From Raillietiella orientalis (taxonomy: Eukaryota), in NCBI GenBank assembly GCA_036172245.1, contig JAYWIR010000033.1, positions 558,001 through 622,000 of the forward strand: DNA of 64,000 nt. The letters are read 5' to 3'. Below the pieces are notes generated by a model that was not told where the DNA came from, ran no database searches, and was given only the letters and a program-made list of their open reading frames with translations. The position numbers and the translations under genes are program-made. Positions 43,230-64,000 of this stretch are shown piece after piece; the first letter of the stretch is position 1, and every line of letters starts with the position of its first letter.

Positions 43230-43575
43230 GATGAACAATAGAAATCCTGAAGTCCAAATTGATCTCCCTCCTCTTATGCTTATGATGTCGTCCTAATAGC
43301 GAATTCTCCCCGCAATCTTGAAAATGCCCTCAACCACTTTGCTGCGGCTACCAGCATAGCCCGTTTCACCATCAACCCAAAAAATTGTGCCCCTTACCAT
43401 TTCGTTTCTTTTCTTGAAAGGTCCTACATCGGGTTTGACCCTCTTATCTATGACAGTGCATCGGTAAATTTGCCCTCAACTTTTAAATTATTCTGCAATC
43501 TCCTCAAGCGCTGTGGAAGAAGTTGGATGCCATCAAAACGTTTTTCATTCTCTCCCTCGTACACGACCTTCGTTT
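43230..43575 (+). pseudogene. Highly decayed RLE-type RT fragment
   Basis: AYDVVLIANSPRNLENAL..TINPKNCA and WKKLDAIKTF resemble the RT of 40318-41163. Confidence 0.55.
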
Positions 43576-43599
43576 AGGTAACAAGCAATTATCGGCAAA

Positions 43600-44150
43600 C
43601 CTTCTCGCCAATCTACGTCTCAGAAAGCGGCAACTGGAACTCTTCGACGCCAACAAAAAACCAGCAAACCAGAGAACCATATTCTAGTTTTACGACACAT
43701 TTGGCAACGCAGGAAAAACTACGATGGTCAAATATCTATAAAGCAAAAAAGGAACCATCTACATGCATTTCTGCCGAAAAGCTGGCGCAGCCCATATCTA
43801 CAATGGGGAACATCGTTGTCACGTGACACACACGTGTCTTCACACGTGACAACCAAGAACACGTACAATATGGCTTTGTAGAATCCCTCAAAAATGGGAT
43901 ATTCGACTCCAAATATCAAGGATCGATGAAGTACTTTGACGTTGGAAACACTCATATTTGCGAACTGGGAGTCCGACAACTCAAAAATGAGTGCTGACAG
44001 ACGGTTTGCAAAAAATATTGGCAGACGTGCAGATTCCCAAGATACGAGTTGGAAAATGAATGGAAAAGGATCCATTCTCCCATGGGCTTCAAGCCCTAGA
44101 ACAGAGCAAGTGCATGACACGCCTGACTTCTCTTGAGCACGCTTTCACCA
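43600..44150 (+). pseudogene. rep: CRESS virus Rep helicase half (decayed endogenous viral element)
   Basis: FYDTFGNAGKTT, IYMHFCRKAGAAHIYNG, VQYGFVESLKNGIFDSKYQG, KMSADR; homologous to 62537-63085. Confidence 0.85.
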
Positions 44151-44204
44151 ATTTCTTTGAGTGATTTCGCTAGCAGCGAAATCACTCAAAGAAATTTTTT
44201 ACTA

Positions 44205-44305
44205 CTAGTATATTGCTAAATCTCTGTTCTGATTGAACTCCAAATAAAACATTTGGGTTATTCTATATAGAGAGTAGCCTTTTGTTAAAGTACCCTCCTT
44301 TGGAA
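44205..44305 (-). pseudogene. cap: CRESS capsid C-terminal fragment converging on rep
   Basis: PKEGTLTKGYSLYRITQMFYLEFNQNRDLAIY* vs PKNGNLTKGYPIFRITTRYYIWFKHLRDVSLY* at the end of ORF 62232-62513. Confidence 0.75.
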
Positions 44306-44314
44306 CCGGTTGAT

Positions 44315-47300
44315 AGGAAAATAACTATTCTACTAACCTCAAAATATTAACCATTGACTACTGCCTGATGAAAATACACAAACATCTTGCGTTGCACTGA
44401 ATTTTGCATGAATTTCTTGTCACCACGTTCTACCTAATTTTCCAAATACATATTTCGAATATAATGTAGTAACACGTGATTCCTTCAAAAACAAAAACTA
44501 GAAAACTGCCACGTGACAAAAAAACTAAATAAATTTTAGAATCTGAAGTAACAGCCAGTTACTTGAACAGCAAGATTTTAATTCGCACTAGTTTCACGGG
44601 AAAATTCCGCGATTTGCAATAGCAACCGAAAGATGTGCCAACATGCTAGTAAGCCATAGATACACTGAACATTCACACATACTTTCCAACCCTGGGTGCA
44701 AGCCCAACCTTGGATGGACTTACCGAAGCAGTTAGCACCTTCAAACATGCCCACCCCTTATATGGGCTCTTTTCATATTAGAATACAATCAGGGCGTCAT
44801 GAAAGCATTGCCAATTCCAAGATCTTAACATGTACAGATGATCTCCTGATCATTACCAGAAATCCAAACGATCTGCTATCGGCCTTAGACCTGACTGGGG
44901 CACTCACAAAATTAATTGGTGTACTGCCAAACACAAATTAGCGTAACTAACTTCACTGCCAAGCGAAAACACCGACATATCTGGGAATGACTTTCTTCTC
45001 CATTTTCAAGAGCCTCAAGTGTTGCATTCGACTACCACACCATGCATAATTTTGCCGTGCACACAGTACACTGCAATACGATGCGTGGTACACATTACAC
45101 GTGAATCATGTGCATGATGTTTTCAGATGTCGTGATGCGGTTTTTCAATGATATAACTTATATTGAAGAGATGCATACATGCAGATACATTTGCATAGTG
45201 AGTTCACAAGATGACATGTTGGCAACCACCTAAAACATCCGAGTCCTCACAAGCTTAGATTGCACCTACGATTTGAAAAAGTCAACTCAACTCTCAGCAT
45301 GCAACGAAATTACTAACAGCTTACACGTTAGACAACACTAGTGCATCAACTGCAACCCTACTGTCACATTTGACAGAATTGGCCATCCAGACTTCCCTCT
45401 GGCTGAATGTACATTACAAAACAGTTCAGCAACATGCACAAGCATCCCATGCACATCTCATCAGCACAGCAGGCCCTGATGTAACAAAGCATGGCATGAA
45501 CAAAAACGTTGCAATTCTCAACACTTTCACAGCAGTGAAAGTCCAACAGCTCCACAATCTTTCTTTCTAGAATTTACATCTCCAAGTCTCACTGAATCAT
45601 CTCATTACAAGCAGAACATCCACACATTTTTTTGCCATCCATAAACTCTCCTGTCAACAATCGCCATCACAGTAAACGTGCAAAGTGGAACGGGACCAAG
45701 ATGCAGTTCTCAAAACTCTAGTAGGTCGCTCTTCCATTGCTTCTTGACGACGTTCTCGATTTCTGATGACTGAAGAAAAACAACAACGACATTGCAAGCG
45801 AGTGCTTCCGTTCAACTCCTTTCTTTGTTCTGCATCACTGCAAAAGAAATCACAAGCATTCCAGCACCTTTCCTTTTTCCGATTCTCACAGCAATTTTCA
45901 AAAAAGCAAAAATTAATTCCTTTACCGTAAAGTGCTCACTGCTAACAGCACCTTCCTTTTCCCATCGATCACATACTCCTCGAATGCACACATGCCTTGC
46001 AACCCGACCATTCCACCATCCACACTTTGAGCCACAGCATTTCTTCCCACGTTCCAAACCGAAACTGAACCGTGCAGCGCCACACCCACTTCAACCAGAA
46101 AGCGCAGCCGCCCCTTTCCCCTCTTCCCGCTCTTTAGCCTCTTCCTGTGCGCTTCAAGATGTGCATTTCGAGGAGAAACAGACAGCGTGGAGTTCGATCT
46201 CCCCAAGTCTTTTGGCAACAACAGCTTCCCTTGAAATTGCACCTTTCCACTCTTCACCACTCTTCAATGATCCTTTCGCAATGATTCCCTTACGTCTTCT
46301 CCATTGAAGACATTCCTCGGTTCTTCCACCCATGTCGGTGTTCTTTTGCAATCTGAGGTCTCCGAATGCACAAGAGGCTTCTCACATTCTCCTATCGTCA
46401 CTTTTACGATTTGTTTGGGAAGTGTTTCATCAGCGGGCGCACTTTTTCAAAAAGTACTGCACATGTCCACGAAAATGAATCGAGTTTTAGATTCTCTTAT
46501 ACACAGAAAAGCTGCTTTCCATCGTGAGGACGAAACCAAACCTCGCATGGAAAGGGAGAACCCTTTCCATGCTTGGCTTTTCAAGATTGAAAATTCGCCA
46601 GGGCCTGCAGGGAGATTCTTTCACGGAGCTTCCAAGGATATCAATTTCAATTCAGAACGGTGGTGGAGACAGAACAGCAATCGGTCACGTCGGAACGAAT
46701 ATCTCACTTGTCCTGATGGAAGCAACACCAGGAATGAATTTTAAACAAGTTTGTGTTTGATTAAATTAGGCATAAATTCTACGGATATAAGAACGAAGGA
46801 AGGAATCTTTGCATAAATTGATCATTCATTGGAACTGCCTATGTTGCCTCCGGGACATCAGCCTTCCTGACTTGATGAGAGGACGAAGGGAAGTGCCAAG
46901 CTGAACTGCGACAGATGCGGGAAATTTTTCGTTAGACTGCAACTGTTTCTCTTTCCATGAAATCGAGAAAACTGGTCAAGAAAATAGCATTCTTGTAACA
47001 ACCACTCCTTCTCCTCATCACACAAATTCTTTCGAGACCGATGACTTTGCGAATTATTGTTTTTTTCTAACCACTGACAATATTTTGCTTCCTAAATGCT
47101 GTGCAGCTCCTTTCACATGCAAGAAATTCATATTCTTTATTTTGCTCTCCATGTGCAAGAGCATTGGTTCCTCCAGAAAATTGGAAGGATAGCCCTTGGA
47201 TGGATGCTTCCCTTTCTTTATCAAAACTTGGAAAAGCCTTCTCAATGAATTCGGAGATCACCATCTCACCTGCTCTTCAAATCGCCTCGATTGGCCATTG

Positions 47301-48420
47301 CAAGCACCAGGATTCGTGCTTCCACCTTTCTTAGGTGTGGATGAATTTCAATTAAAACTCACATCACAAGTTGGTTTCTTGGAATACGTGTTTTCCCGAG
47401 CTTTCAGTAAGCCTGCATTTCTTCTCCCTAATTTCTCCCCAGAGTTACGTGAATAAAAGAGGATGCATAAGCCTTTCGTTTTCTGATTTGAGATTTTTAA
47501 TTGCATGATGTTCAGTGTAAGAAGTCAGCTCGAGTGAAGAAGCTTCGTGCAGCTCATCAGATTCCACCGAAACCGAGGAAACGTGCCGTCCGACACACGA
47601 GTACATTTTTGATAACCTGGTTATTAAATAGTCTTGTAATTTTGAACATCTGTTTCAAAGCCATCTTCAAAATCCGAACCCATGTATCCAACAGATTTTC
47701 TTTTCGAGCTGATTTTTGTGTACATTTTTGTGGAATCGTCATCTTTAGATTCCTAAAGGAGGATTTTCCTTTCGATCCAAAAACTTTCCTTATATCCATG
47801 CAGGGCAACCGCGGCTGCAGGTTATTGCGCAACTGTTTTCTTACAAAGTTCGGTTTGATCATCCTTTAGAATTTTCCAGTCCGAGGCATTGAGAAACTGT
47901 GCTGAAATTCCACACCAAAGGTGAATGCTGCAGTTCTGCACTCCTGCCGTTCAGCTAAACGATTTGAATGCTATTTTGGCACAATGCTTTTCTCCGACGC
48001 CAACCCACTTGCCTTTTGTTTTTCGAATGCACTGAGAATCAGCACGTCTTTGCTGTCCTGAGTATGTTGATGACCTGTCCTAAATCAAACAGTTGCATTT
48101 ACTGTTCACTATTCCAAATTTCAGGCAGCTGCAACGTTCGCACTGGGGAAGTGCTCTTGAATGCACTGGGTTGATTGATTGCCTAGTGTGCTGCCAGACT
48201 ATGATGTTTCCCACTTCCAAAAATTCGAAAATGGGGATTGTCTGCAATTTTCAGCTGCATAGGAGAAATCCAGTTGTAGCAATCGAGCAATCTTTGGTGC
48301 TTCAAAGCAGGAGTTGAGGGTTCCCTGGGAACATGTACATGTTTGCTGTCTAGCTGTGTTCGATCATATGCTGCCCCCTTAGTCAGTTTCTCACATTTGG
48401 CGTTCCCTCAACCTAAATGT
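44315..48420. repeat. Left arm of large diverged inverted repeat
   Basis: Reverse-complement blocks: 44315-44550/59480-59720; 44560-44970/58430-58850; 45140-46410/57290-58350; 46420-46930/56270-56745; 47490-48420/53345-54290. Paired ORFs MKTFLGSSTH.. and MVKSGKVQF.. occur on opposite strands. Confidence 0.9.
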
Positions 48421-48429
48421 GGTGAGCGG

Positions 48430-48665
48430 GTCTCGGATGAAGCACTCCACGGGAAGTTGTGACGACGAAGACTGCAAGGCATATATGTTTACATGCCGAT
48501 CGATAAGAGTCTTCATGTCTTGAGGTGTCCCACATTGCTCCGCGACTGACTGGCCCTGGAAAGCGTCATTGGGCTGACCACCACTTCAGTCATGAGAATT
48601 CAAGCAGGGATGTGCCATGAAAACGGGAGCGTTTTCTTCTACAATTCAATGACCCAACCACGCCG
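48430..48665 (+). mobile_element. Decayed family E LINE zinc-finger fragment
   Basis: TGTCCCACATTGCT..GACTGG..CTG.AAA..TCAT.GG.CT.ACCACC matches about 32230-32415. Confidence 0.65.
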
Positions 48666-49724: not shown

Positions 49725-49930
49725 ATATTCTGAACATCATCATATTTTCCAAAATATCCATAAGCTTGATCATAGTTTTCAACTTGTCTTCACTAAGTGA
49801 TATTTGCTCATTAGGCTTCCAAATTAACTTTGCAACAGATGCTGTTCTCAGTCCAGATTGTAACCTCCCTTTTGTACTATGAAAACCTGTATGGTCACAA
49901 AAAATCCCACACCCGATTTCATACAATGTA
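49725..49930 (-). pseudogene. yebC: YebC/PmpR family C-terminal fragment
   Basis: AKLIWKPNEQISLSEDKLKTMIKLMDILE then, after a frameshift, DDVQNI. Confidence 0.65.
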
Positions 49931-50364
49931 CAACCCAAGGCTCGAGCATCATGTGCGATCTGCAGCATTCTGTCTTGCACAGCTTTTGAAGCAAAGTTAT
50001 ACTATTTTTGTTCTCACAAAATTTAATGAACTTTGTGCCAACACAGAGACATCTCTGGAATTATTTGGCATATTTTCTGCTGACAATACACATTCTTCTG
50101 CAGCCGCCAGATCACCATTGTAAACATAAATATCTGCTAATTCTTGATTTGGCCTAAGAACTTGCTTTTTTACAGCTGCTCTGTAATTTTGCCAGCTCAT
50201 CAGATGCTTCGTACCCATTAAGACTCGATTCAATTATATGCAAAAGATCAGACCTAAAATTTGCACCGAGCTCGGGTCTTTCACGCAACTCCTTAAACTC
50301 TAACACAGTAAATCGATTATCAAATTCAATCGTATTGCTCCCACTGATAGCTATTGTATTTTTC

Positions 50365-50630
50365 TTTGTTGTTTCTCCTTGCTGGCTCAATGCTTAGTGA
50401 TACCTGTGATCAAACTTGCTTTCTGTTTCAGATGAATTCTTTGAATGCCATGTTTTTCGAATGTATTTAGCAATATTCTGTGTCATCAACACACCATTAC
50501 CAAGGCTGTGCGTTTCTGGTGTAATTTCAGCGTTATCTGAGATGTTTTCCTCTGCTCTATACAAGTTTTCTAGAATCCGAACTAGTTCTTTTGAAAAATT
50601 TGCAATAGCATGCTTTTTGGCAGCATCGAG
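50365..50630 (-). pseudogene. grpE: GrpE nucleotide exchange factor fragment
   Basis: AKKHAIANFSKELVRILENLYRAEENI..GVLMT / LLNTFEKHGIQRI / KFDHRYH*ALSQ. Confidence 0.8.
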
Positions 50631-50639
50631 CTAACGTAG

Positions 50640-50845
50640 AAGATTGCAAAGTGTTACATCATTATATTGAAATGCCTGAAAATTGGTTTGGATGTCTTGG
50701 AGTGATACTGGCAACTTTGAATTCATCAGTAGATTGAATGTTGCTGTTGCAAGTAAACAAGGTAGCTTAGCAGAGTTAATCGCTGAAATGAACAGTGACA
50801 TCACAAATGTGAAGGTAAAATCCAGATTACAAAACTTCTTCACAA
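50640..50845 (+). pseudogene. RelA/SpoT C-terminal ACT-domain fragment, alphaproteobacterial-like
   Basis: DCKVLHHYIEMPENW / SW..FISRLNVAVASKQGSLAELIAEMNSDITNVKVKSRLQNFF. Confidence 0.65.
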
Positions 50846-51250
50846 AGCAGCCGGAAAAGCATATACCTCTTTGGTGAGAGAATTTATAGTGAAGGCTTTA
50901 TAAGAGCAAAGATGATCTGTATGCTAAATGCTTTGTACTCAGAACCAGGTGAGCTTGAAGTTGATATAATTTTAATTAAAGAGTCAGCTGCAAACATGCT
51001 TTACAATGACATAAAAATGTTGTGCAATACCAGAGTACAGCACAGACTGGAATAAAGATGATTGTGATGCGTTTTATGAGCAACTTCTTGCAAATTCAGA
51101 AAAATGCAGGAAGTCTTGAAATCGTAGCAAATGATGGGATTCATTTTGGATCTGGTGTGCAGGTTGAGATTGCCAACTAGACTCAATAAAATTTGCTGCA
51201 TGCGCATATTTTATTCTCAAAAAGTATCATCAGTGTCAGGGTTTCACAGA

Positions 51251-51360
51251 ATGGCTATAGCAGTTTTGATGCCAGCTCTTTCTCCTACAACGAGTAAAGG
51301 AAATGTTGCAAAATGGATCAAAGAAGAAAGTGATTTGTTAGAACCAGGACAGATGATCCA
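51251..51360 (+). pseudogene. Pyruvate dehydrogenase lipoyl-domain N-terminus (PdhC/PdhB type)
   Basis: MAIAVLMPALSPTTSKGNVAKWIKEESDLLEPGQMI matches the MPALSPTM.EG.LAKW.K.EGD pattern. Confidence 0.75.
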
Positions 51361-51589
51361 AGACAAAGATATTGGAGGCTATTCTGGAGTCAACTTCAAT
51401 CTTCGATATGCCAGGAACAGGTCTAATAAGTCAGCTATGTACTATAGAAAAGGTTTTATTTAGGTTTCCTGATTATTTTCCTGACATCACTTCAAAATTC
51501 GAAGCTATCAGAATTGATCTGCAAGTGGTTAACCAAGCAGTTGAGCGCAAAAGATCAGAACTCATTATTAATGAAGATCTTCATTTGCG

Positions 51590-51845
51590 TATGCTTCAAT
51601 TACTACATATCTAAAAAGATCAACTATCTCTGCTATGCTGGATTGGTCTTGGAAGAATTTTCTAATTTCTGCAGTAGTAATTGGTCCAAGTCCATTAATG
51701 TTTATCAAACCTTCCTCATCTGAAGTTTTCACAGCAGAAAAAAAAGTTGTCAACGTCACCGTAGTGAGTGGAGAGTAACTTTGCAGCTGATTTTCCAACA
51801 CTTCCAATGACAAGTGAGTATATAAAGTTCCCTAGAGAAATGTTT
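51590..51845 (-). pseudogene. ligA: NAD-dependent DNA ligase HhH fragment
   Basis: ISLGNFIYSLVIGSVGKSAAKLL / EEGLININGLGPITTAEIRKFFQD. Confidence 0.72.
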
Positions 51846-52084
51846 CTTGACTTCTGATTCATCCTTGATCATCCACGTATCCTGAATAGCCGACCTAGAT
51901 TTATTGATAGATAAAAGTGAATGGATCACTATGTGCAACCACGCAGTTTGAAGAGAAATAAGATTTGCACCAAGATCTTCATACAGCGTAATGAATATAC
52001 ACGAATCACGTTTCTCAGGATGTCAAGCGTCCAATTCCTTATCGAAAAATAATTTGTATTGCAAGCAGGAGCAAACCTTAGCGA

Positions 52085-52315
52085 ATTACGCTTGCTGGGG
52101 TTTTAGGGGAGCTTATGTGGATTATATTGCCTGCATATCTATTTTCTAAAAGACTAGAAATAGAATCTACTTTGCGCGTAAGAACCATTTTTGCTATTTC
52201 TGCATTGCTAATTGCTCGCTTTTCTAATAAAAGCTTCTTAAGGAGAGCACTTAATACGAGTCTTGCAGTCTCATTCCATATTTTATGATTCTGGATGATC
52301 TGGAATCAAGCTATT
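52085..52315 (-). pseudogene. F-type conjugative coupling protein TraD-like fragment
   Basis: LIPDHP / IWNETARLVLSALLKKL..SNAEIAKMVL..SSLLEN..AGNII..SPKTPASV resembles the TraD LIP..FW..AR..KTA.S.R segment. Confidence 0.5.
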
Positions 52316-53344
52316 GTCTTAATGTGGGCTAAGTGGTCTCTTTCACTAAGGAGTCCCCGGTTCTCAGCTCGCATGTCAAACAGATGTCAAACATGTCAAT
52401 ATAATTCGAGAATCAAGGCATTATCTTGTAAAAACTCTCTACCACTCTTTGGATAGTTCAATGCATTCCATATAATTCCTATACCTGAAGAGCCAGGCAG
52501 AGCCTTCTTTAAAAGCTCCTGAAACTGCTATAAACTTTGTATGCGCCAAGATTATCCAAGTTTCGTGCAATCTCCCCTGAAAGCTTATGTCGCTTGAATA
52601 CGGATATAGTAAAGTAATAAAGTAGTAATAAAGTAGTTTCCAGGAATTTACTTTTTAAAACATTCTCATCTCTATGTAACAGGGGTCCTTGCTTTCCAGG
52701 TTTTGGTCCCCTCCAACATCTCTGAACTTTACATTGACATCTGTAAAAATCACTTGTAGAAATAGTTTTTAAAGTTGGGAACTATTCTTACCGCAGTTGG
52801 AAATTCATGCGACTAAAATCCTTCACATAAAGTGGCTGTAGAATGCAAATTCTGCAACACCATTTTCCTTGAACTATGCAACTGTAGCAGGTGACCGAAG
52901 TGTGGAAAACAAACCTTCACAGATGCCTAAGAGATTTAGCTTGGTTTGCGAATTGCCACTTTAATCTTTGATAACTTCTGAACAAGCCATTCAGAATATA
53001 TGTTGCATACATATGAAATCCTGCACATGGTCAGCAAACTATTATGCTTCTGCATGTGCTGCAGCAGTTCCCAAACACAAGAGAAAGCGTGCATCACCCA
53101 TTCTTACACCAAGCATTTGGAAGTTGTATCAATGAAAAACATGTTCCAGCAGAGACTTACAATTCTGCAATCGAATATCCAGGTTTTGGAATATGTGCAG
53201 CCTCCCACAAACCGAGCTTGCAAAACTGGGCTTTAGGAACTCAGAAGACATGGAATGCTTCTTTGGAAAACACATCACGTCTCAAACACTGAGAGCTTCG
53301 TGTACTCCTTTCAATCCATAGAGTGCGAACTTTAACTGAAAGCC

Positions 53345-56300
53345 AACACATTTAGGTTGTGGCAACGCCAATTGTGAGAAACTGATTAAGGGGGCAGCAT
53401 GTGATCTCACACTGCTAGACACCAAACGGGTACATGTTCCCAGGAAACCGTCAACTCCTGCTTGGAAACACCAAAGATTGCTCGATTACTACAACTGGAT
53501 TCCTCCTATGCAGCTGAAAATTGCATACAATCCCCATTTTCCGATTCCTGGAGGCGGGAAACACCATAACCTGGCAGCACACTAGGCAAGCAATCAACGT
53601 AGTGCACCCAAGAGCACTTCCCCATTGCAAACGTTGCAGCTGCCTGGATTTTGGAATAGTGAACAGTATATGCAACTGTTTCGTTTAGGATAGGTCATCA
53701 ACATACTCAGGACAGCAAAGACGTGCTAATTCTCAGTGCATTCGAAAAACAAAAGACAAGTGAGTTGGCGTCGGAGAAAAGCATTCTGCCAAAATAGCAT
53801 TCAAATGGTTTAGCTGAACGGCAGGAGTGCAGAAGTGCAGTTTCCTCTGCAGCATTCATCTGTGGTTTGGTTTTTCGATGCCTCGGACTCGAAAATTCTA
53901 AGGGATGATGAAACGGAACTTTGGATGAAAACAGTTGCTCAATAACGCGGAGCTGCCGTCGCCCTCCGCGGATGTGAGAAGAGTTTTCGGATCCAAAGGA
54001 AAATCCTCATTTAGGAATCTCAAGGCGACGATTTCACAAGAATTCACACAAAAGTTAGCTTGAAAAGAAAATCTGTTGGATACATAGGTTCAGATTTTCA
54101 AGATGGCTTTGAAACATGCTCAAAATAACAACACCATTTAATAACCAGATTTTCAAAAATGTACTCACTTGTGTGTCGGACGGCACGTTTCCTCGGTTTC
54201 GGTGGAATCTGATGAGCTGCACGAAGCTTCTTCACTCGAGCTGACTTCTTACACTGAACATCATGCAATTCAAAAATTGAATTCTGAATTCAAAAAAAGA
54301 AAAAGCTGTTTGTCGATGATTGTTTCGCGTACGCTTGAGCACGTGCAGCATTTGAATAGTGAAGGGTAGTTTGGATTCGGATATTTTTCGTTTGTCTTCG
54401 GAAGAACAGCAATGATATCGATGAGAGGTTACCCGTTTACTGGATAGTCACTATATGTAATACATGTGGTGATTTCTTGTCTTGGTAATCCTGTTTTCTA
54501 CTGTAGCCACTTGAAGGCAGGTGAGTCCATTCAAAAGAGCAAGTGATTCTCCAGTGTTCTGAGATGCACTGTTCCTGAATGGTTTGGGAAGAAACACAAT
54601 AGGCATGTGGTGCCACAATTTGGGAAAGTAATGAGCACATCATAGCTAAAGCACTTTGGAAAGTTGATTTGCATCTATTATGCAGTGGATGGGTCTACTT
54701 TAGTTCATGGATTTCACACTGGTGACACAGCAAGAACAAAGAGCATTTCTTGCATGTGAAAGGTTTGAAACCCTCCAGCTGCACAGCATTTAGGAAGCAA
54801 AATATTCTCAGTGGTGAGAAACCAATAATAACTCGCAAAGTTATCGGTCTGAACAGAATTGCTGCGATGAGGAGGAGAGGTTGCTACATGAATGCCAGTT
54901 TTTGTGACCAGTGTTCTGGATTCCAAGGAAAGAGAAACGGCAGAAGATGGAAGGCATTGGTTCCAGGGGGTTCTGTAAACTGGAACACTATCATCTTGGC
55001 TATGCTGAAGATGCAGGAGCATCAAAGGTTGCTGACGTACGTTCAGGCAGGAAAAGGGAGAAGTTTTCAGGCTAAGGATAGGAATGTTAAAATGATTAGC
55101 GTAGATGACATCTGAGAAACGATTAGGAATGAACAAAAGCATTGGGCTGGAACTGCAAATAATGGTTTGATTTCCACTGTACATGTAGCATGTGCTTTGG
55201 GGGTAATAGGAAAGATGTGAGGCTCGGTGTAATCAAGCTCACCCTCAAGAAAAAAGCTAGAATGCTTCTAGCAAGCTGCGAGTCATTTTAGCAATGTGGA
55301 AACACAAGGTGAGCAGTTCAGTCTTTCAATGTGGGTAGACAAGTATAGGCCTACCAGCAACTTGGAAATGGTAGGACAGCAGAGTCTGTTAATAAGCTTC
55401 ATACATGGCTCCAAAATTGGCAGAATAGGCGGCTTGCCCACAGATCTCTCCATGCATGCAAGCAGGTCTTAAGGTGGTTTGGTTGCAATTCCATTCAAAA
55501 GTTTTTAGGTGTAGTTGCAAATAGTGCTGATGCAGCATACTTTAAAGCAATCACACATCCTGACCCTCTATGCATAGGTTGATCAATCTTTCACCTGGCC
55601 AAGTATCATGTCCTTCTGATTAGGGCAAGCACTGCTACACTGACTGAATGTTACAAATGCAAGGTTAAAGCATCCTTCGCAAGCAGAGGAAGCACCTATT
55701 CTTAGACATCAGATTTTACTGTTGCAGTCCAAAGAAAAAAGTTATTTTGTTATGATCATGGATGAAGTGAGTAAGTTGGAAAAGTAAGTTTCTTTGCTCT
55801 TATGGGTCCATTTAGCAGCACAGAGTGCTTGCAGACCAAAATGTTTGCTGGAAAACTATCAGCAGGAAAGAAGAATCAGGGAAGAAGAAAACTCAAGCAT
55901 TGAAGGAAACGGCTCTCTTTTGTAATTGTTTCCGAAGTTTGTGTTTCCACGTGCTGCACAAGAGGAAATGCTCCCTTGTTGCATGGAATTCCTTGTGTCC
56001 CAGCATCCCAAGAAAGGGGGTGCCTCTTATGCAGGGAAGAATCGTTCAGGAGAACGGAGGGAGGAGCGCAAATCCCTGCACAGTTGGGTCCTTCGCATTC
56101 CTTGCAATATGCTGGCGAGGTCCTCTGCATGACTTTCCAAGTGGAAGCACCTCGAGCCCACCTGTAAGATCCCGATGTGGAAATGAGTGACTGCTGCTGT
56201 GGAGTCCAAAGCAAGGGGGAAGGTTCCCCGGAGAGGAAGAGAGTGCACTAGAAGGTGCACGAATTATTCGATTTTCCAGCATGTGGCGCCGTTTGGTTTG

Positions 56301-59300
56301 GCGCTCCCCTGCGTCCTTTATAGCAAGGCTGATGTCCTGGAGGCAACATAGGCAGTTCCAAGGAACAGTCTCTTTTTGCTAGGATTCCTTCCCTAATTCC
56401 TCTACCCGCAGAATGTATGCCCAATTCAATCACACACGAACTTGTTTCAAACTGATTCCTGGTGTTGAGATATTCGTTCCGACGTGCTCGGCTGCTGCTC
56501 TCTCTGCACCACTGTTCCATGATTTGAATTTCACATCCATGGAAGCTTCGTGAAATAATCTGCTTGCAGACCCTGCCGAGCATGAATTCTTGAAAAGCCA
56601 AGCGTGGAATAGGGAGAAGGTTTGGTTTCGTGCTTACGATGGAAAGCAGCCTTTCTGCGTATAAGAGAGCCTAAAACTCGATTCATTTTCGTGTACATGT
56701 GCAGTGTTTTTTGAAAAAGTACGTCCACTGATAAAACACTTCGCATGATTCCAATTCTTTTTCGTACAATAGTCGTTACCTAGAAACTAATAGTCATCTA
56801 TACGCGAACACTTCAATGCTAGACAGTGGATCTTTAGAAGGGAGTGGGCATTGACGAGTCCACTGGGACGCACCTTCAGAATCATAAGAAGTGTTCAGAA
56901 AACTTTCTGGAAGGTACTCCGTTTCGGATAGCGGAGGATCGAAATGCACCAACGGCCATGATGGAGACATTGGTTTCAGTCGACGCGACTCCAATGAGCC
57001 ACGTTTGGGAAATATGATCCATTCCAGGAGTCGGCATGATCCCTAGCCGCGTGGCTGAGCCACACCAAGTATGAGAAATGCCAAGTTGTCATTGTAATAC
57101 TACAAATGGGAAAGATTCCGCGATGCCATGGGCATCACTTGAAGAACGACGAATTCGGAAAGACGATTGCTGAATGTGCAGTGTCGGCTTTGTGGTGGCT
57201 TTGAAGATTCTCGTGGGAACAACGGTTGAACAACGCGGCATGCAAGACGAGCCGTTTGTGGCCGGAAAGTGTGGAAAGCAGAGGCCACAAATCGTAAAAC
57301 TGACGATAGGAGAACGTGAGAAGCCTCTTGTGCATTCGTAGGAGACCTCAGATTGCAAAAGAACACCGACATGAGTGGAAGAACCGAGGAATGTCTTCAA
57401 TGGAGAAGACGTAGGGAAATCATTGCGAAAGGATCATTGAAGAGTGGTGAAGAGTGGAAAGGTGCAATTTGAAGGTAAGCTGTTGTTGGCAAAAGACTTG
57501 GTGAGATCAAACTCCGCGCTGTCTGTTCCACCTCGAAATGCACATCTTGAAGCGCACGGGAAGAGGCCGAAGAGCGGGAAGAGCGGTAGAGGGCGGCTGC
57601 GCTTTCCGGTGGAAGTGGGCGTGGCGCTGCACGGTTGTGTTTCCGTTTGGAAGAAATGCTGTGGCTCAAAGTGTGTATGGTGGAATGGTCAGGTGGCAAG
57701 GCATGTAGGCATTCGAGGAGTATGTGATCGCTGGGAAAAGGAAAATGCCGTTAGCAGTGAGCACTTTACGGTAAAGGAATTAATTTTTTGCTGTTTTGGA
57801 AATTGCTGCAAGAATCGCGAAAAAGAAAAGTGCTGGAATGCTTGTGATTTCTTTTGCAGTGATGGGGATCAAAGAAAGGAGTTCACTTGCAATGCTGCTG
57901 TTTTTTTTTTTTTCACTCATGAGAAATCGAGAATCGTCAAGAAGCAATGGAAGGGCGACCAACTAGAGTTTAGAGAACTGCATTTGTCCCGTTTGTTCCT
58001 CCTTGCACGTTTACTGTGACGGCGATTGTTCACAGGAATGCTCATGAATGAGAAAAGGGTGTGTTGATGTTCTGATTCTTGTGGTGAGATGACTTGGGAT
58101 GTTATGAGTTTTAGCAGGAAAGGTTTTGGAACTGTTGGACTTGCACTGCTGACAAAGTGTTGAGGTTTGCAACGTTTCTGTTCATGCCATGCTTTTTGAC
58201 AGCAGGGCCTGCTGAGAGTAGAGTTGACTTTTTCAAATTGTAGGTGCAATCTAAGGTTGTGAGCACTCAGCTGTGCAGGTGGTTGACAACGTGTTGTTTT
58301 GTGAAGTTACCATGCAAATGTAACCTCATGCAGGTATCTCTCCGATATGAGTTATATCATTGAGAAGAAGTTGATATGCAAAGATACTCGTATGTGAAAG
58401 CATCTCACAATAAGTCGTTCCTGGAGATGTTGTTTTCTCTTGGCGGTAAAGTTAGTTACACTAATTTGTTTAGCAGTATGCCAAGGCATTTTGCGAGTGC
58501 CCCTGTCAGGTCTGAGGCTGATGGCAGATCGTTCGGATTTCTGGTTACAATCACGAGATCGTCTGCAGATGCTAAGACCTTGGGATTGGCAATGCTTTTC
58601 TGATGCCCTGTCATAGTGATTGGATCCCAATATGAAAAGAGCTTATATAAGGGGTGGACGTGTTTGGGGGTTGTAATCTCCTGGGTAAGTCCATCGAAGG
58701 TTGGGCTTGCACCCAGGGTTCGAAAGTATGTGTAAATGGTATGGTTGACATCGTTCAGTGTATCCATGGCTAACTGGCATGTTTGCACATCTTTTGTTTG
58801 TGATTGCAAATCGCGCAATTTTCCCTTGAAACTAGTTTGAAATGGAATCTTGCTGTTCAGGTATGGATGAGGAAATTTCGAGATGAGTATCATCACCTGT
58901 AGATTGGAGTGTGATGTAAGGAGATGGTCTGCTTGTGGGATGAGAGTAGTTCTTGCAGAAGTGGGAGTTGGTGCAGTTTGTTGACTTGTAGCAAGTGGCA
59001 TGCTTGCTCTCTGGCGGATGAGGAATGTGAATTTGTGAGGATGTTCTTGGAGAGATCCCATTATTTGAGAGATTTGACAAAGGAACTACAGAATGGTACT
59101 TCATGTCTAAAGGGCTAAAGAAGATGTCCTGTTTGAGATTTGATTGCCAAGGTTCTTACTTGATTTGGTACTTTCGATTAGCATCTCATCTGATCCCATC
59201 CACAGTCGACTTTGCTCCCAGGATGGAGTGTTTCAGTCTGGGAGTTTCGTACTGTGGATTCTGGGAATGCTAACCCTTTCCAGATAAGACGCGAGTAATA

Positions 59301-59720
59301 GGTAGTCCTTTGCTCCGAGCTTGTGCAATAAGTTTATCATGTATCTGAACATCATTGTTTTATTATGACATCTGCCTGGAAATACCAAAGCTTATGTGGT
59401 GTTCTGCAAGGTGCTTCAGAGTTTATAGTCCTTCATGAAGTGCATAGATAAAGGGATTCAAACAATTTGTTGCAGAGTTTTTTTACTTCAGATTCTAGAG
59501 TTCATTTCATTTTTTTGGCACATGGCAATTTCTTAACCTTAGTTTTTAAAGGAATAACGTGTGACCCCATTATATTTGAAACATGTATTTGTAAAATAAG
59601 GTAGAACGTGGTGACAAAAAATTCATGCAAAATTCAGTGCAACGCAAAATATTTGTGTATTTTCATGAGACAGTAGTGAATGGTTAATATTTTGAGGTCA
59701 GTAAAATGGTTATTTTCCTG
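53345..59720. repeat. Right arm of large inverted repeat (with extra internal blocks)
   Basis: Reverse complement of 44315-48420 in collinear blocks; contains unpaired segments such as about 54950-56250 and 56750-57290. Confidence 0.9.
54770..55775 (+). pseudogene. RFC1: Replication factor C large subunit-like remnant with short apparent introns
   Basis: AAQHLGSK; VFVTSVLDSKERETAED; EDAGASK; KMISVDDI (BRCT); WVDKYRPTSNLEMVGQQ; NKLHTWLQNW; MIMDE followed by GTGAGT. Partial mirror copy at about 46940-47140 (-). Confidence 0.7.
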
Positions 59721-60768
59721 GTTTTCCATTTTATGGTCCCCAAAATGTTTCAGTGCATTTTCATAAAGTCAAATATGGGAAAGAAATGAAATACCAAGCC
59801 AATTTAGATTGAATTCTTCGAAGTTTGGGAAAGTGGGAAATTCTCTTATTGTGGAGAGTTTGTTCTTTCTGGAATAGGAAGGCCCTGCAAAGTGGAAAGT
59901 AGGGTTATGGATAGTATTTAAACAGCAAATACAAATAGATAAGAGGAAAACACAATAAGGTTAACAACGCAATGGGAAACTAAATTGCTTATTTGACTCT
60001 ACAGACTGGGCACTAATGTGTTCTGTGATGAAAATGTGAAAAAGAGTGGTGATGTTTTGTGATTTACTTTTGTCATTCTAGTATTCGTCTTGAGGTAATC
60101 TGAAATGCAGCGAGTTTATTATTATGAAAACTGACTGCAATGTTTTGTAGATGTCAAAGCAAAGAAAGTTCTTGGAAATTCTAATATGGAATTGCTGATA
60201 TGGAGACTGCCTTTTCAGTTTGAAAGTTAAATTTTCCTTGTTCAAATTGATAAGAGAAGTAACGCAGTTTTCCAGACTTGCATCTTTCAGTTTGGGCGTT
60301 TCTGCTGTGGTATTCGTTTGGAGTGGAATGTCATGCATTGAAGTGTACTGTGATATTGTTGCATGAAAAAATTCCAAAATGCAACTATTTACTCATTGCT
60401 GATTGTTGTTTAAATTATTCTCATGGCAATTATGATGATAGAAAGTCTGCAGTTATTCAATGTTTGAAGCTAAATCAAAATCTTTGGATCTTTAACATGA
60501 TGTGTTATGAATCTTGATTTATAATTTCAACTTTTTTGAGGTTTGTGACAGATGTTGCACTGAAAGTTGACTGTGCATAAATTTCCATACAGCAAAGGCA
60601 AGATTTTTTCTTCTTGTTTTTGCTAATCGGTATGCTTGGAATCAGAAGTTCCGAAATATGTTGCCTACCCATCTTACTGAACTGCAAATTGTTTTCTTGA
60701 AAAGCATTTGTTAGTATCCTGGAGTTAATTTGGGGTGAGGGCCAAGTCATCATTATGAATGTGGTGAG

Positions 60769-61286
60769 GGGGTTGGGGTGTGCTCTGCTTCGTGTAAGGC
60801 GGAGGCATTCTTTTACAAAATTTATGTTTTTACTATAAAATTTGGTGTGGTTGTTGAGTATGAAGAGTTCGTCGGCGCCATCTTTTATGAGTTGGAGTAT
60901 CTAGCGGGTAGATGATTTTCGATGTTTTTGTTAAAAATTTTAGGCTTACCAGGTCTTGGTAGTCCTGAGGCTCGTTGGCTTCGTGTAGTTTGCCGAATAT
61001 CTAAGCTTGTTTATCTTCCTTTGTGCAGTACCGTAAGTTGCTCTGCGGACTGCCTCCAGCTTTTTCAAGATGACTTTTTTGGAAAGTTTTTCTTTTTAAT
61101 CCTGGTAGTGTTCGAGGTTCTTTTAGTTGGAAGAATCCTTGAAGGTGTGGTGTTCGGGTTTTTGCGATCTCTGCCTATGCATGCGAAGAGGCAGTTAAGT
61201 CGGCACCGGTTCATGATTTCTTTTAAGTCGTCTTCGGTGAAGTTGCACAGGGTAAAGCACCAGTTGAAGAAGAGTGCGTAAGGCAT
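60769..61286 (-). pseudogene. rep: Rep HUH endonuclease half
   Basis: Motif I WCFTLCN, motif II TPHLQGF, motif III NLRYCTKE (frameshifted); ends ECLRLTRSRAHPNP. Confidence 0.88.
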
Positions 61287-61337
61287 CTTGAAATTCACTG
61301 TAAGTGCGACTTGTTTGTGGTTGTCTGCGTGTTGGTA

Positions 61338-61343
61338 TTTATA
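61338..61343 (-). promoter_or_regulatory. Candidate TATA box for rep
   Basis: TATAAA on the minus strand about 50 nt upstream of the rep ATG, next to the origin. Confidence 0.45.
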
Positions 61344-61362
61344 CTGCGTAACTGCGCAGAAG

Positions 61363-61397
61363 ATGCAATCTGGTAAATAGTATTACCCAGATTGCAT
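61363..61397 (+). other. Rolling-circle origin stem-loop with nonanucleotide TAGTATTAC
   Basis: ATGCAATCTGG-TAAATAGTATTAC-CCAGATTGCAT: perfect 11-bp stem, nonamer at 61378-61386. Confidence 0.93.
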
Positions 61398-61643
61398 TTC
61401 GCTGACAACGCAAAACCTTGGGAAATTCGTTATGTTGTAATAGATATGTTGGGTGGCTGGTCTTTGTCCGCAATCGTGGAAGACTTTGGAATGCGGAACA
61501 AGCTGTTGCTGTCCACGTGGGAAGTGCGTGGGCGTGATCCGACCTCGTGGAAGGCTGATAAAGTCGGATGGGCGTGCCCACCAGCCAGACTTAAAAAGGG
61601 AGGGGGGTTAGTGTAGGTCGCCAGTACGCTGTCAATCAGCAGA

Positions 61644-62513
61644 ATGGCGTAAGCTCGCGCTGTTCGTTCTAGAAAACGAAAGCGTGTAGTATCTTCTGGT
61701 TATGTAAAGCGTCGTCGTTGGAATGTCCGTCGTCGTAAATGGAGGCGTTTGCGTGGTTCACGTTATCGTTTAGTGAGAACAACGCGTGTAGTTGTGAGGG
61801 ACCAAACGCAGGGTGCCACGCATTATTCGTCTTTGAGGACTGCCGACGGGGATGCAGTAAATTGTTCTTGGATGTTTTGTTATTTGGAGGATGAACCTTA
61901 TGTGAAAGACTTGTTGAGGAATCGTAATTTGGAGCAATTCGCAAGATATAGGTACATGCGGGTAAAAGGCTTGTCTGTAAAGATAGAGCCCTTATCTTTG
62001 GGCTTAACAATTGGCAACATGGGTGAAGAGTTCGGATGAAAGTTTCGTATCGAAATATGTTGTATCAAAGTCATAAGCAGGGCGAGACTTTTGGAAGTTT
62101 AACTGGAATGCCTTATAGCAGGGTGGAAGATGTTATTGCTGGTCATGTCGAAACTTCTGGTTGTTTTGATCGTTATTTCGGTGTACGTGGATTGAGGTTT
62201 TACTCCATAGCATATATCCGGGATACGCTGTTTGAGGAAGGAGGAAACTTGTACAGATTTCGGCGTTTCCCTTGGATTGATTGTTGGCAAGATTGATTCT
62301 TTGGATCCGGAAACTTCCTGTCGTGTGTGTTTCCATAGGATGCATGTATTGAAGCATATGTCAGGTGTGGATATACCTGATGAATTGAAGGAAGCTTGTC
62401 AGTCTGGTGTATGTCCCAAGAATGGAAACCTGACCAAAGGCTATCCGATATTCAGAATAACCACAAGATACTATATATGGTTTAAGCATCTGAGAGATGT
62501 TAGTTTATATTAA
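61644..62513 (+). pseudogene. cap: CRESS capsid protein (stop at codon 3, two frameshifts)
   Basis: Arg-rich N-terminus RSRKRKR..KRRRWNVRRRKWRRLRGSRYR; FARYRYMRVKGLSVKIEP strand; about 290 codons. Confidence 0.8.
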
Positions 62514-62536
62514 ATGAATGAATTGCAAAGAGCTAT

Positions 62537-63131
62537 TTACGAATCTTGGTTTATTTCATCAAAAAATGGGGAAATGGGTGACAATGAGGAATCAGGCGAG
62601 TCGCGGGCTTGCGCTGTACTAGGGCTTGAAGTGCAAGCCCAAGGGAGAATGGTTTCATCATGGATCATCATCATCCAATCGGTTAATTTACTGGAACTAG
62701 ATGTGGATATATCTCTGACAACCCATCTATCAGAACTCATCTTATCATAGTTGGGTTCACAATTACTGAAAACCATATGTGGTGGCTGGAAGTATTTTAT
62801 AGAGCCTTGATACTTGGAATCGAATATAATGCCATTTTTTAGACTCTCTATGAAGCCGTATTTCACGTGTTCCATGTTGTCCTTGGTGAGGTCGACTACA
62901 ATGATCCTTTCCCCGTTGTATATGTGAGCGGCGTCAGCTGTTTTGCAAGAGTGCATGTATATTGCTCCCTTTTTAAGATGTAGGAATGTGGCCATAGTTG
63001 TTCTGCCAATTTCTCCGATTGGGTCAAAGAACCAATGGATCTTGCGGTTGTCTGGATTATGACGTATGAGTTTGAGGATATCCATTTGCCCTGTTCGAAG
63101 TTGATGATTGGCGATGGGGTTGGGGTGTGCT
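62537..63131 (-). pseudogene. rep: Rep SF3 helicase half (nanovirus/alphasatellite-like motifs)
   Basis: WFFDPIGEIGRTT (Walker A, K to R), IIVVDLTK (Walker B), YGFIESLKNG, DSKY, VFSN (motif C), KMSSDRW. Confidence 0.88.
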
Positions 63132-63169
63132 GATAGATCTTAGTGGAGGAGTTGTAGATTTCGAACGAA

Positions 63170-63350
63170 TGCGTGGTCCATCTGTTTGGCGTTCTCGCGC
63201 GAATGCGCTGGGAATTCCGTGCCGCTCTCAAACAATATGGTACCGTTCACGCGCAGCAGTTCAAGCCTTCTGTGGATTTTACTGTACATCAGTGCGAACT
63301 CTCGGCCACGCGTATTTGACTCGTACCCTGGAATCGGCTCGTACGGAGAT
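63170..63350 (+). mobile_element. Short LINE ORF1-like fragment between two viral units
   Basis: VVHLFGVLARMRWEFRAALKQYGTVHAQQFKPS resembles VVHLSGVTAGMRNEQLRAALGKEGTVHAVWNKPS (ORF 21600-21803). Confidence 0.55.
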
Positions 63351-63364
63351 GAATGCGAAGGTGA

Positions 63365-64000
63365 TACCATTTTTTAGTGTTTTTATGAAACCGTATTGCA
63401 CGATTTCCTGGTTATCTCTGGTGAGATCTACCACAATGATGCGTTCTCCGTTGTAAATGTGTGCGGCGTCTGCTTTCTTGCATGAATGCATGTAAATAGC
63501 CTTTTTTTTTTTGAGATATAAAAACTTGGCGAAGGTGGGTTTGCCGTTTCCTCCGACTGGATCATAATACCAGTAAATTTTGGGGTTGTCTGGTTCAGAT
63601 CGTATTAGTTTAAGTATGTCCATTTGCCGGCTGCGCAATTGTAAGTTTGCCATCGGATTTGGGTGGTTTCTGCTTCGTGTTAACCTGAAGCATTCTTTAA
63701 CGAAATTGATGTTTTTGCTGTAAAATTTAATATGGCTTTGTAGGATATCTAGTTCTGATGCTCCGTTTTGGATTAGTTGTAGTATCTTGGGTAGAATAAA
63801 GTAATTAAGTAATTTAATTTTGCTTACCATGTCTTGGTAGTCGTTTGTTTCGTTTTGTTCTTGTATCATGCCAAATGTCCGCGCTTGGTGGTCCTCTTTG
63901 GTGCAGCACCGTAAGTTGCTACGTGGACTGCCTTTTGCCTTTTCCAAGTGTGCCTTTTGGAAAGGTGTTCTTTTTAAACTGTGCTGTGTTCTGGGATCCT
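63365..64000 (-). pseudogene. rep: Additional diverged CRESS Rep, 3' truncated; 5' part runs off the window
   Basis: ORF 63279-63947: EKAKGSPRSNLRCCTKE..RLTRSRNHPNPMANLQLRSRQMDIL..YDPVGGNGKPT..IIVVDLTR..TLKNG. Confidence 0.88.

Follow-up and report, generated by a model that had tools for sequence, protein, structure and literature searches.

A probable endogenous copy of a whole CRESS-DNA virus genome, opened within the Rep linker and lying beside related viral fragments

In cyclovirus-type (type II) CRESS-DNA viruses the genome is ambisense: rep and cap point away from each other on either side of an intergenic origin, and their 3' ends converge. Endogenous elements that hold whole genomes or integrated units of circular single-stranded DNA viruses have been described in animals and plants. 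Complete circovirus genomes lie in tandem as endogenous elements in cyprinid fish (carp and golden-line barbel; Dennis et al. 2019, PMC6372831), and integrated geminiviral units are represented by EGV1 in yams and GRD in Nicotiana (Filloux et al. 2015, PMC5014472). Circoviridae-like EVEs also occur in crustaceans and other arthropods (Metegnier et al. 2015, PMC4573495; Dennis et al. 2018, PMC6069186); the set described in PMC4573495 consists mostly of short rep pieces averaging 128 aa, for which, in the account given there, no insertion signature was found. Going by the elements presented in PMC6372831, a whole integrated CRESS-type genome is a rare, yet previously known, kind of fossil.

Within the window, the whole stretch of 64 kb that was analysed, the viral unit at 60769-63131 (hereafter copy 1) probably represents a single whole genome of an unclassified CRESS-DNA virus (Cressdnaviricota, with a circovirus-type Rep), present as an endogenous copy that has since decayed. 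The unit measures 2347 nt and has an ambisense layout in which the cap-sense strand carries the nonanucleotide; across it follow the 5' half of rep (-), the origin stem-loop, cap (+) and the 3' half of rep (-) (Table 1). This is the order of a circular map opened within the Rep linker, at the endonuclease/helicase boundary, with rep, origin and cap present once each. The original prediction had read the region as a unit-length CRESS-DNA genome opened inside rep, and this reading is borne out: all parts are single and collinear with a circle, and the ends overlap by 16 nt. The same single, collinear parts and terminal overlap support its further proposal that a whole genome comprising rep, cap and origin was captured. 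Its word "complete", however, holds for the structure and not for the coding capacity. The permuted order, the 16-nt overlap and the 2347-nt unit together suggest that the captured genome was circular; the unit falls within the small-circular-genome size of CRESS-DNA viruses (about 1.7-3 kb), and the nearest library relatives sit on contigs of 0.9-3.9 kb. With rep, origin and cap surviving in their native order, the genome plan of the virus is visible. As a germ-line fossil, copy 1 would link an unclassified virus lineage with a host lineage, in a group most of whose members are known from metagenomes alone and have no assigned host.

Table 1. Features of copy 1 and of the related viral fragments, in positions of the 64-kb window.
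Feature	Position	Strand	Description
EVE3, third fragment	43568-44303	+ and -	Rep helicase half and cap tail, tail to tail as in copy 1
EVE3 Rep helicase half	43568-44133	+	three frames, 2 stops
EVE3 cap end	44208-44303	-	last 32 codons of cap
rep 5' half, copy 1	60769-61286	-	HUH endonuclease and oligomerisation region to linker ..SRAHPNP; ATG at 61286
Left 16-nt terminal repeat	60769-60784		codons for AHPNP of Rep (minus strand); left viral end
Candidate Rep-binding iterons	61343-61356	+	two ACTGCG with a start-to-start spacing of 8 nt, immediately 5' of the stem
Replication-origin stem-loop	61363-61397	+	11-bp stem ATGCAATCTGG/CCAGATTGCAT, 13-nt loop with TAGTATTAC
Putative capsid gene	61644-62513	+	about 289 codons, arginine-rich N-terminus
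rep 3' half, copy 1	62537-63131	-	linker AHPNP and superfamily-3 helicase; stop at 62537-62539
Right 16-nt terminal repeat	63116-63131		right end of viral unit
Filler between copy 1 and rep2	63132-63356		225 nt, without viral similarity, unique in the window
rep2, neighbouring Rep fragment	63357-64000	-	endonuclease motif III through helicase to ..KNGITF

The 5' half of rep carries the HUH motifs CFTLCNF, HLQG and YCTKE, which align with motifs I, II and III of library Reps, and its segment at 61004-61174 matches Pfam Viral_Rep PF02407 (E 5.2e-10, 39.9 bits; cut-off 26). It reads in three frames, over which the endonuclease domain is split: the frame changes near 61137-61174 and again between 60944 and 60904, and stops lie at 61001-61003 and 60901-60903. 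The 3' half is open for 200 codons from 63131 and contains an ATG-started ORF of 182 aa at 62537-63085. Its helicase motifs (Walker A GEIGRTT, Walker B IIVVDL and motif C FSN) align with those of library Reps; the Walker A lysine, which is kept in rep2 and EVE3, is arginine in copy 1. Searched alone, the helicase half found no Pfam family, no match in a word-index protein search within the near length band, and no solved Rep chain in a PDB sequence search, where two matches at E 0.12 were due to chance; Pfam RNA_helicase was not significant for rep2 (E 0.053) and gave nothing for copy 1. On a 306-position Rep profile, the pieces of copy 1 fall at positions 8-48, 41-96, 116-164 and 159-303. This profile reaches eight solved Rep chains (best 7lar_A, E 4.6e-34); it was built from library Reps, rep2 and the copy-1 helicase half, so that the matches of these sequences to it are partly circular.

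Between the start of rep (61286) and that of cap (61644) lies the intergenic TAGTATTAC, a nonanucleotide of the NANTATTAC type, at 61378-61386 of the plus strand and flanked by the stem arms at 61363-61373 and 61387-61397. The DNA fold of this stem-loop has an energy of -17.6 kcal/mol, compared with -6.8 +/- 1.9 for shuffled sequences (z -5.77), and none of 200 shuffles folded as well. The ACTGCG pair beside the stem may represent iterons. Another TAGTATTAC, at 57094 on the minus strand, has no surrounding stem-loop and was treated as a chance occurrence.

The gene on the other side of the origin is probably cap, judging from its arginine-rich start, its expected position and strand, and the homology of its end to the EVE3 tail, the family matches being weak. 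Its reading is broken three times, first by a stop in the third codon (61650-61652) and then by shifts of frame, one near 62027-62036 and the other within 62211-62293; the three open pieces, 128, 89 and 100 aa long, lie in successive frames. One of them matches Circo_capsid weakly, at E 0.0016 and with 19.3 bits where the cut-off is 36.2, and Pfam found no family for the other two. The last 32 aa are 50% identical to the cap tail that lies beside the Rep fragment of EVE3. An Atlas feature search with cap returned viral capsid clusters, which we regard as leads only.

Among 1.84 billion library proteins, the best Rep identity is 37%, to metagenomic proteins, and the lineage is therefore treated as unclassified: it appears to have no close known relative, and we do not file it in Circoviridae. 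When rep2 was used as the query, 2086 library proteins were returned at E<=0.001; of the top matches scanned, seven of eight contained Viral_Rep (E<=0.001), six of them above the cut-off. A protein scan of IMG/VR found no relative, and nucleotide look-ups there with the origin 21-mer and with a back-translated Rep motif gave 0 matches each. A shorter back-translated motif hit two loci in JGI metagenomes, on contigs of 8 and 11 kb; tblastn matched the motif alone, and these hits were set aside as chance.

The 16-mer GGGGTTGGGGTGTGCT, which had been noticed at both ends of the unit 2347 nt apart, was confirmed by exact matching. It occurs exactly twice in the 64-kb window, at that start-to-start distance, and none of 100 shuffles gave two matches, even with up to two mismatches. 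Both copies align onto one stretch of the unbroken neighbouring rep, rep2, where base 63655 corresponds to the end of the copy-1 5' half (60770) and base 63665 to the beginning of the 3' half (63127); the overlap is thus true homology. Extending the repeat to 23 nt (21/23 identical) was not better than chance, and the flanks showed no likeness to the viral continuation past the 16-mer, with 1669/2000 and 1997/2000 shuffles scoring equally well. Neither a target-site duplication nor flank homology was found around copy 1, and there is no poly(A) at either of its ends. A clean 16-nt overlap without target-site duplication may be a rare direct footprint of the opening of a single-stranded DNA circle and its joining to a chromosome.

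In the assembly, copy 1 is joined on both sides to sequence without viral similarity, namely the left flank and the 225-nt filler; the right junction thus adjoins this filler and then another viral fragment, rather than plain host DNA. A stretch of 34 nt of the filler (63316-63349) recurs in a different sequence context on a 643-nt contig of DNA run X1. A protein match between the left flank and 48340-48447 (E 0.004) was rejected, being 28% identical over 36 aa and failing at the DNA level. No contig or read bridging the junctions was seen in one shallow DNA run with partial coverage of the locus, whose contigs cover only 60333-60491, 60592-60763, 62527-62726 and 62739-62908 in addition to two short partial matches, and which may derive from the same sample as the assembly.

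The fragment on the far side of the filler, rep2, is open for 239 codons and runs off the end of the window; read on the minus strand from 63998 to 63357, it is uninterrupted across the junction position. The original prediction, which placed this rep at 63279-63947, was right about the read-through but not about a start at 63947, since the frame stays open to the end of the window. At the amino acid level, rep2 is 72.8% identical to the copy-1 helicase half and 66-76% identical to the pieces of the 5' half. Differences between copy 1 and rep2 are distributed over the three codon positions as 23/16/51 in the 5' half and 17/17/50 in the 3' half, with pN of 0.178 and 0.153, pS of 0.71 and 0.74, and pN/pS of 0.25 and 0.21, respectively. 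The third fragment, EVE3, lies 17 kb away, and relative to the opening point of copy 1 its start is some 16-20 codons further upstream; its differences from copy 1 are distributed as 31/25/56. From these codon-position patterns and, for rep2, the pN/pS values, we infer that rep2 and EVE3 are separate captures of related viruses. EVE3 was also considered as the inverted-repeat twin of copy 1, and this was rejected: the arms of the inverted repeat are 76-86% identical, whereas the viral pieces are only 64-65% identical and show a third-position excess. A weak Rep-profile match at 45657-45935 (E 4.6; tblastn E 0.71) was likewise discarded, as its translation has no Rep motif and it is part of the inverted repeat. 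ORFs for reverse transcriptase (LINE RT) crowd the GC-rich part of the window. Separate captures of related viruses would mean that the locus records repeated germ-line contact between the host lineage and one virus clade. Three separate captures of one clade in 20 kb, beside fragments of symbiont genes, would further point to a site at which foreign DNA accumulates.

Copy 1 carries at least seven disruptions, comprising two stops and at least two frame changes in the 5' half of rep and one stop and two frame changes in cap; the Walker A change from Lys to Arg comes on top of these. The stops and frame changes, together with the non-viral sequence on both sides, make it likely that the copy is endogenous and not a contaminant. 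It is dead: because its genes are broken, it can neither replicate nor produce particles. An assembly artefact, in which a host contig took in reads from a free virus, is extremely improbable. Such an artefact would agree with the lack of a junction-spanning read or contig in the one shallow, partially covering DNA run, and circular genomes often show a short terminal overlap in assemblies; but a free virus would have open genes, here there are stops and frame changes in both rep and cap, and the same 20 kb contain two other relatives, also decayed. To our knowledge, moreover, 16 nt is not a usual assembler word length, which also counts against an artefact. A mosaic of two viruses joined during or after capture, whether between the rep halves or between the left and right sides of the unit, is hardly credible either. 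The material for it was at hand, with three related but distinct viral fragments close together; however, 60769-63131 is collinear with a single circular map and has no internal junction, and the two rep halves are equally far from rep2 (71.3% nucleotide identity for the 5' half and 73.0% for the 3' half, with similar pN and pS), so that the outcome which would have contradicted the original prediction, two halves from different viruses, was not seen. In a tree of unjoined and partly non-overlapping pieces, of which only the nearest-row identities were used because few branches were supported (4 of 48 starred), rep2 is likewise the nearest row to each half.

As to how a single endogenous genome arrived, we lean, given a real element, towards a chromosomal break having taken up a viral DNA molecule of slightly more than unit length, with no target-site duplication. 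This molecule could have been broken off a rolling-circle multimer, or have been copied by a polymerase that travelled just over one turn round the circle during break repair, and copy 1 would have decayed neutrally since its insertion. Uniform neutral decay is an imperfect fit in that the seven disruptions fall in 461 codons and none in the 197-codon helicase half (Poisson P about 0.05). A random multimer piece would seldom overshoot a full unit by only 16 nt (overlaps of <=23 nt have a chance of about 1 in 100), and this rarity favours routes that inherently give short overlaps. Campbell-type entry would expect the short overlap that is a coincidence for a random multimer piece; here, the circular double-stranded form would enter by one recombination at a chromosomal site already holding the 16 nt, with the 16-mer shared by chance, or by single-strand annealing or microhomology repair. 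It predicts what is seen, a single permuted unit bounded by short direct repeats of identical sequence, outside which homology is lost abruptly, and by arithmetic estimate many 16-mers should be common by chance to a virus of 2.3 kb and a genome of roughly a gigabase. We nevertheless consider it unlikely: 16 nt is very short for homologous recombination, and the filler followed by a viral fragment on the right suggests end-joining of loose pieces. The near-exact unit length and the 16-nt overlap could also be read as the footprint of a copy-round mechanism: a broken chromosome end would have primed synthesis on the viral circle, and the polymerase, having gone slightly further than one turn, would have displaced a few bases of its own start before switching back. 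This is rather doubtful. Were it the case, the EVE would have been made by repair synthesis and not by ligation of viral DNA, and entry would have occurred preferentially at the Rep linker, a possibility hinted at by EVE3, which starts within about 20 codons of that place. An RNA route, in which a read-through transcript slightly over one turn was reverse-transcribed and inserted by a LINE, is very improbable despite the abundance of reverse-transcriptase ORFs in the GC-rich part of the window, as poly(A) and target-site duplication are both absent and no ordinary viral message would extend over all that the unit contains, namely an origin region that is not transcribed and two genes, of which one is antisense. 

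Cyclovirus-type genomes resemble copy 1 in layout, with divergent rep and cap, converging 3' ends and TAGTATTAC on the cap-sense strand. The likeness is one of layout, in view of the 37% identity of the best library relative and a helicase half that finds no solved Rep chain. Like the cyprinid elements as presented in PMC6372831, copy 1 is a whole chromosomal genome with rep and cap that exceeds one unit; unlike them, it is a single unit with a 16-nt overlap, its Rep lineage is unclassified and does not belong to the genus Circovirus, and it is set apart from the elements described there by a documented origin stem-loop. EGV1 and GRD, according to the description in PMC5014472, share with copy 1 an origin hairpin with nonanucleotide, a (partial) rep and repetition past one unit. 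These elements have plant hosts, geminivirus Reps and long tandem arrays, and EGV shows signs of expression and selection in that description, whereas copy 1 comprises one unit only, its Rep is of circovirus type and its genes have decayed. The arthropod EVEs, as reported, are likewise Rep-related CRESS fossils, often several per genome and from several lineages; set against the short rep pieces that make up most of the collection in PMC4573495, copy 1 stands out as a whole unit with a clean terminal overlap.

Copy 1, the integrated CRESS-DNA virus unit at 60769–63131, carries its genes in the arrangement that an ambisense circle would show once opened within rep and made linear; reading in all frames recovered the predicted succession of rep 5' half, origin hairpin, cap and rep 3' half (table). 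Within the 64-kb window there are just two exact copies of the 16-mer GGGGTTGGGGTGTGCT, lying 2347 nt apart from start to start as anticipated, and two such matches were found in none of 100 shuffles, even when up to two mismatches were permitted. When the two halves were aligned to rep2, the neighbouring Rep fragment that reaches the window end, the 5' half stopped aligning at 60770, opposite rep2 base 63655, and the 3' half started at 63127, opposite base 63665; both 16-mer copies are therefore homologous to one rep site, and the viral sequence therefore amounts to one unit plus 16 nt. The same alignment bore out the continuity of rep2 across the junction point. These observations support the original prediction that a whole circular genome with rep, cap and origin was captured. 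A longer, 23-nt version of the repeat (21/23 identical) is not supported: the flanks are unlike the viral continuation past the 16-mer, 1669 and 1997 of 2000 shuffles scoring as well.

Features in and around the integrated viral unit (window coordinates)
Feature	Position	Strand	Detail
EVE3, third CRESS fragment	43568-44303	+/-	Rep part (+), cap codons (-)
Inverted repeat, arm A (left)	44315-48424
TACO1/YebC fragment	spacer 49726-52305	-	E 2e-6
GrpE fragment	spacer 49726-52305	-	E 8.7e-6
TrwB/VirD4-type coupling protein fragment	spacer 49726-52305	-	E 5.9e-7
HHH_2 fragment	spacer 49726-52305	-	E 8.6e-4
Inverted repeat, arm B (right)	53344-59719
16-mer copies	60769-60784; 63116-63131		exact
rep 5' half	ATG 61286 to ..SRAHPNP 60769	-	all-frame reading
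Viral_Rep match	61004-61174		E 5.2e-10, 39.9 bits (cut-off 26)
ACTGCG hexamers	61343-61348; 61351-61356		candidate iterons
Intergenic region with stem-loop	between rep 5' half and cap		all-frame reading
Origin stem arms	61363-61373 / 61387-61397		11 bp
TAGTATTAC	61378-61386	+	in 13-nt loop
Putative cap	61644-62513	+	all-frame reading
rep 3' half	AHPNP 63131 to stop 62537-62539	-	lies 23 nt past cap; all-frame reading
Filler	63132-63356		225 nt
rep2	63998 down to 63357	-	239 open codons, runs off window

The origin nonamer TAGTATTAC lies on the cap-sense strand in the loop of a stem whose DNA fold reaches -17.6 kcal/mol, against -6.8 ± 1.9 in shuffles (z -5.77; 0/200 as good), and the two hexamers immediately 5' of this stem may be iterons. 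A second TAGTATTAC at 57094-57102 (-), with neither a stem-loop nor Rep or cap nearby, was treated as chance. Besides the Pfam Viral_Rep match, alignment of the copy 1 pieces with the best Reps from a library of 1.84 billion protein representatives brought motif I (CFTLCNF), motif II (HLQG) and motif III (YCTKE) into register, followed by an oligomerisation stretch, a linker and a helicase with Walker A, Walker B (IIVVDL) and motif C (FSN). A 306-position profile was derived from 30 library Reps together with rep2 and the copy 1 helicase half, and on it the pieces occupy positions 8-48, 41-96, 116-164 and 159-303; the 5' pieces were absent from the profile, and the inclusion of the helicase half makes its own match there partly circular. 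This placement puts the cut in the linker just ahead of the helicase domain. The assignment of the cap is a probable one that draws on position and strand, an arginine-rich start, a weak Circo_capsid match and the identity of its tail: the match (E 0.0016, below cut-off) fell on one of three pieces, Pfam gave no family for the other two, and the last 32 residues are 50% identical to an ORF at 44208-44303, tail to tail with the EVE3 Rep. An Atlas feature search returned capsid-like clusters, which serve as leads only.

Copy 1 is structurally whole but functionally dead. The frame of the rep 5' half shifts first around 61137-61174 and a second time within 60944-60904, where alignment to rep2 takes gaps of 2, 3, 6 and 2 nt, and this half carries stops at 61001-61003 and 60901-60903; in the cap, codon 3 (61650-61652) is a stop and the frame shifts twice. 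The rep 3' half retains 200 open codons (62537-63139), including an ATG-started ORF of 182 aa, and its Walker A reads GEIGRTT, with Arg where rep2 (GGNGKPT), EVE3 (GNAGKTT) and library Reps have Lys. The other 461 codons of copy 1 hold seven disruptions versus none in this helicase half (Poisson P ~0.05), whose openness could be chance or could reflect a retained, ATPase-dead Rep fragment.

A search of the whole library with rep2 gave 2086 matching proteins at E<=0.001; stricter thresholds left 301 at E<=1e-10 and only one, P0001, at E<=1e-30 (37% identity, E 3.2e-32; next best 33%). Ten of these relatives were inspected; they are unnamed or annotated "hypothetical", and their contigs measure 0.9-3.9 kb. 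Of eight relatives scanned, seven match Viral_Rep at E<=0.001, and six of the seven exceed the cut-off. In P0001 (354 aa), which lacks a Viral_Rep match, an oligomerisation-like stretch sits between two helicase-like ones; a small contig with a permuted or repeated sequence may be its source. The Rep profile matches eight solved Rep chains, the best being 7lar_A (E 4.6e-34), which we take to be the Rep of porcine circovirus 2. Word-index protein searches, IMG/VR and motif scans yielded no closer relative. The lineage is a circovirus-type Rep group without a close known member.

The two rep halves, compared like all pieces here in their unrepaired state, are similarly far from rep2: the 5' half shows 71.3% nucleotide identity over 341 nt (pN 0.178, pS 0.71, Nei-Gojobori), the 3' half 73.0% over 311 nt (pN 0.153, pS 0.74). 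A tree that included 45 library Reps has few supported branches; in it the most identical row for each copy 1 piece is the matching part of rep2 (71-78%). Grouping of the halves with different viruses was thus absent, and a mosaic of two viruses is highly improbable. Differences between copy 1 and rep2 fall 23/16/51 by codon position in the 5' half and 17/17/50 in the 3' half, which, with the pN and pS values, shows divergence under purifying selection; the two diverged as viruses rather than as decaying chromosomal duplicates, and so represent separate captures. EVE3, which joins a Rep helicase half (three frames, two stops) tail to tail with the last 32 cap codons, differs from copy 1 by 31/25/56 over 105 codons and likewise stems from a related virus captured separately. 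Its left end lies ~16-20 codons upstream of the copy 1 opening point (profile ~143 versus 159-164), a closeness expected by chance ~5% of the time. Between its rep and cap 3' ends, EVE3 has a 47-nt near-perfect palindrome (44150-44196, 93.6% self-complementary), whereas the 23-nt gap in copy 1 has no such hairpin.

The GC content of the window falls sharply from 52-61% in the first 42 kb, which carry reverse-transcriptase and zinc-knuckle ORFs, to 37-48%, the change beginning near EVE3. The AT-rich part contains EVE3 and a large inverted repeat with arms 76-86% identical in seven blocks, whose spacer has the window's lowest GC content (37%) and holds bacterial gene fragments in short ORF pieces. 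EVE3 stops 12 nt short of arm A's outer end; beyond arm B, an unassigned stretch of 1049 nt precedes copy 1, which is followed by the filler and rep2. The filler sequence is unique within the window, and 34 nt of it (63316-63349) recur in DNA run X1, in a 643-nt contig whose sequence differs on both sides of them, which suggests that the filler includes part of a host repeat.

The insertion comprises one unit plus 16 nt with abrupt ends, no poly(A) and no target-site duplication common to both flanks (1985/2000 shuffles as good), and its right end adjoins the filler and then a second viral fragment. We favour a reading in which loose viral DNA of just over unit length, either a rolling-circle product or a repair-synthesis copy run once round the circle, would have been end-joined into a break. 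Had the chromosome already contained the 16 nt, a single crossover or annealing there would give exactly the observed arrangement, and since a random piece of a multimer seldom ends 16 nt past one turn, we put real weight on this route while considering it unlikely. Entry through RNA, like the two-virus mosaic, ranks lower still and is very doubtful. So does an assembly artefact, which we regard as scarcely probable; the stops and frame changes in copy 1 argue against contamination by free virus. In the only sequencing run found, a shallow DNA run (contigs 151-643 nt) possibly from the sample behind the assembly, contigs match portions of the left flank and of the rep 3' half with 98-100% identity but bridge neither junction.

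Endogenous CRESS elements are commonly rep-only, as originally stated and as PMC6372831 confirms, rep and cap occurring together in only four vertebrate cases. The consulted parts of PMC10193959, PMC6069186 and PMC3198968 added nothing further on whole-genome copies. According to PMC5014472, yam EGV1 consists of tandemly repeated 2.6 kb units with an origin hairpin, and a crustacean survey (PMC4573495) describes 46 Circoviridae-like EVEs with a mean of 128 aa and no transposition or microhomology signature. The kind of element is thus already known and the virus lineage is new, and the terminal overlap of copy 1 provides a clue to the mechanism of entry.
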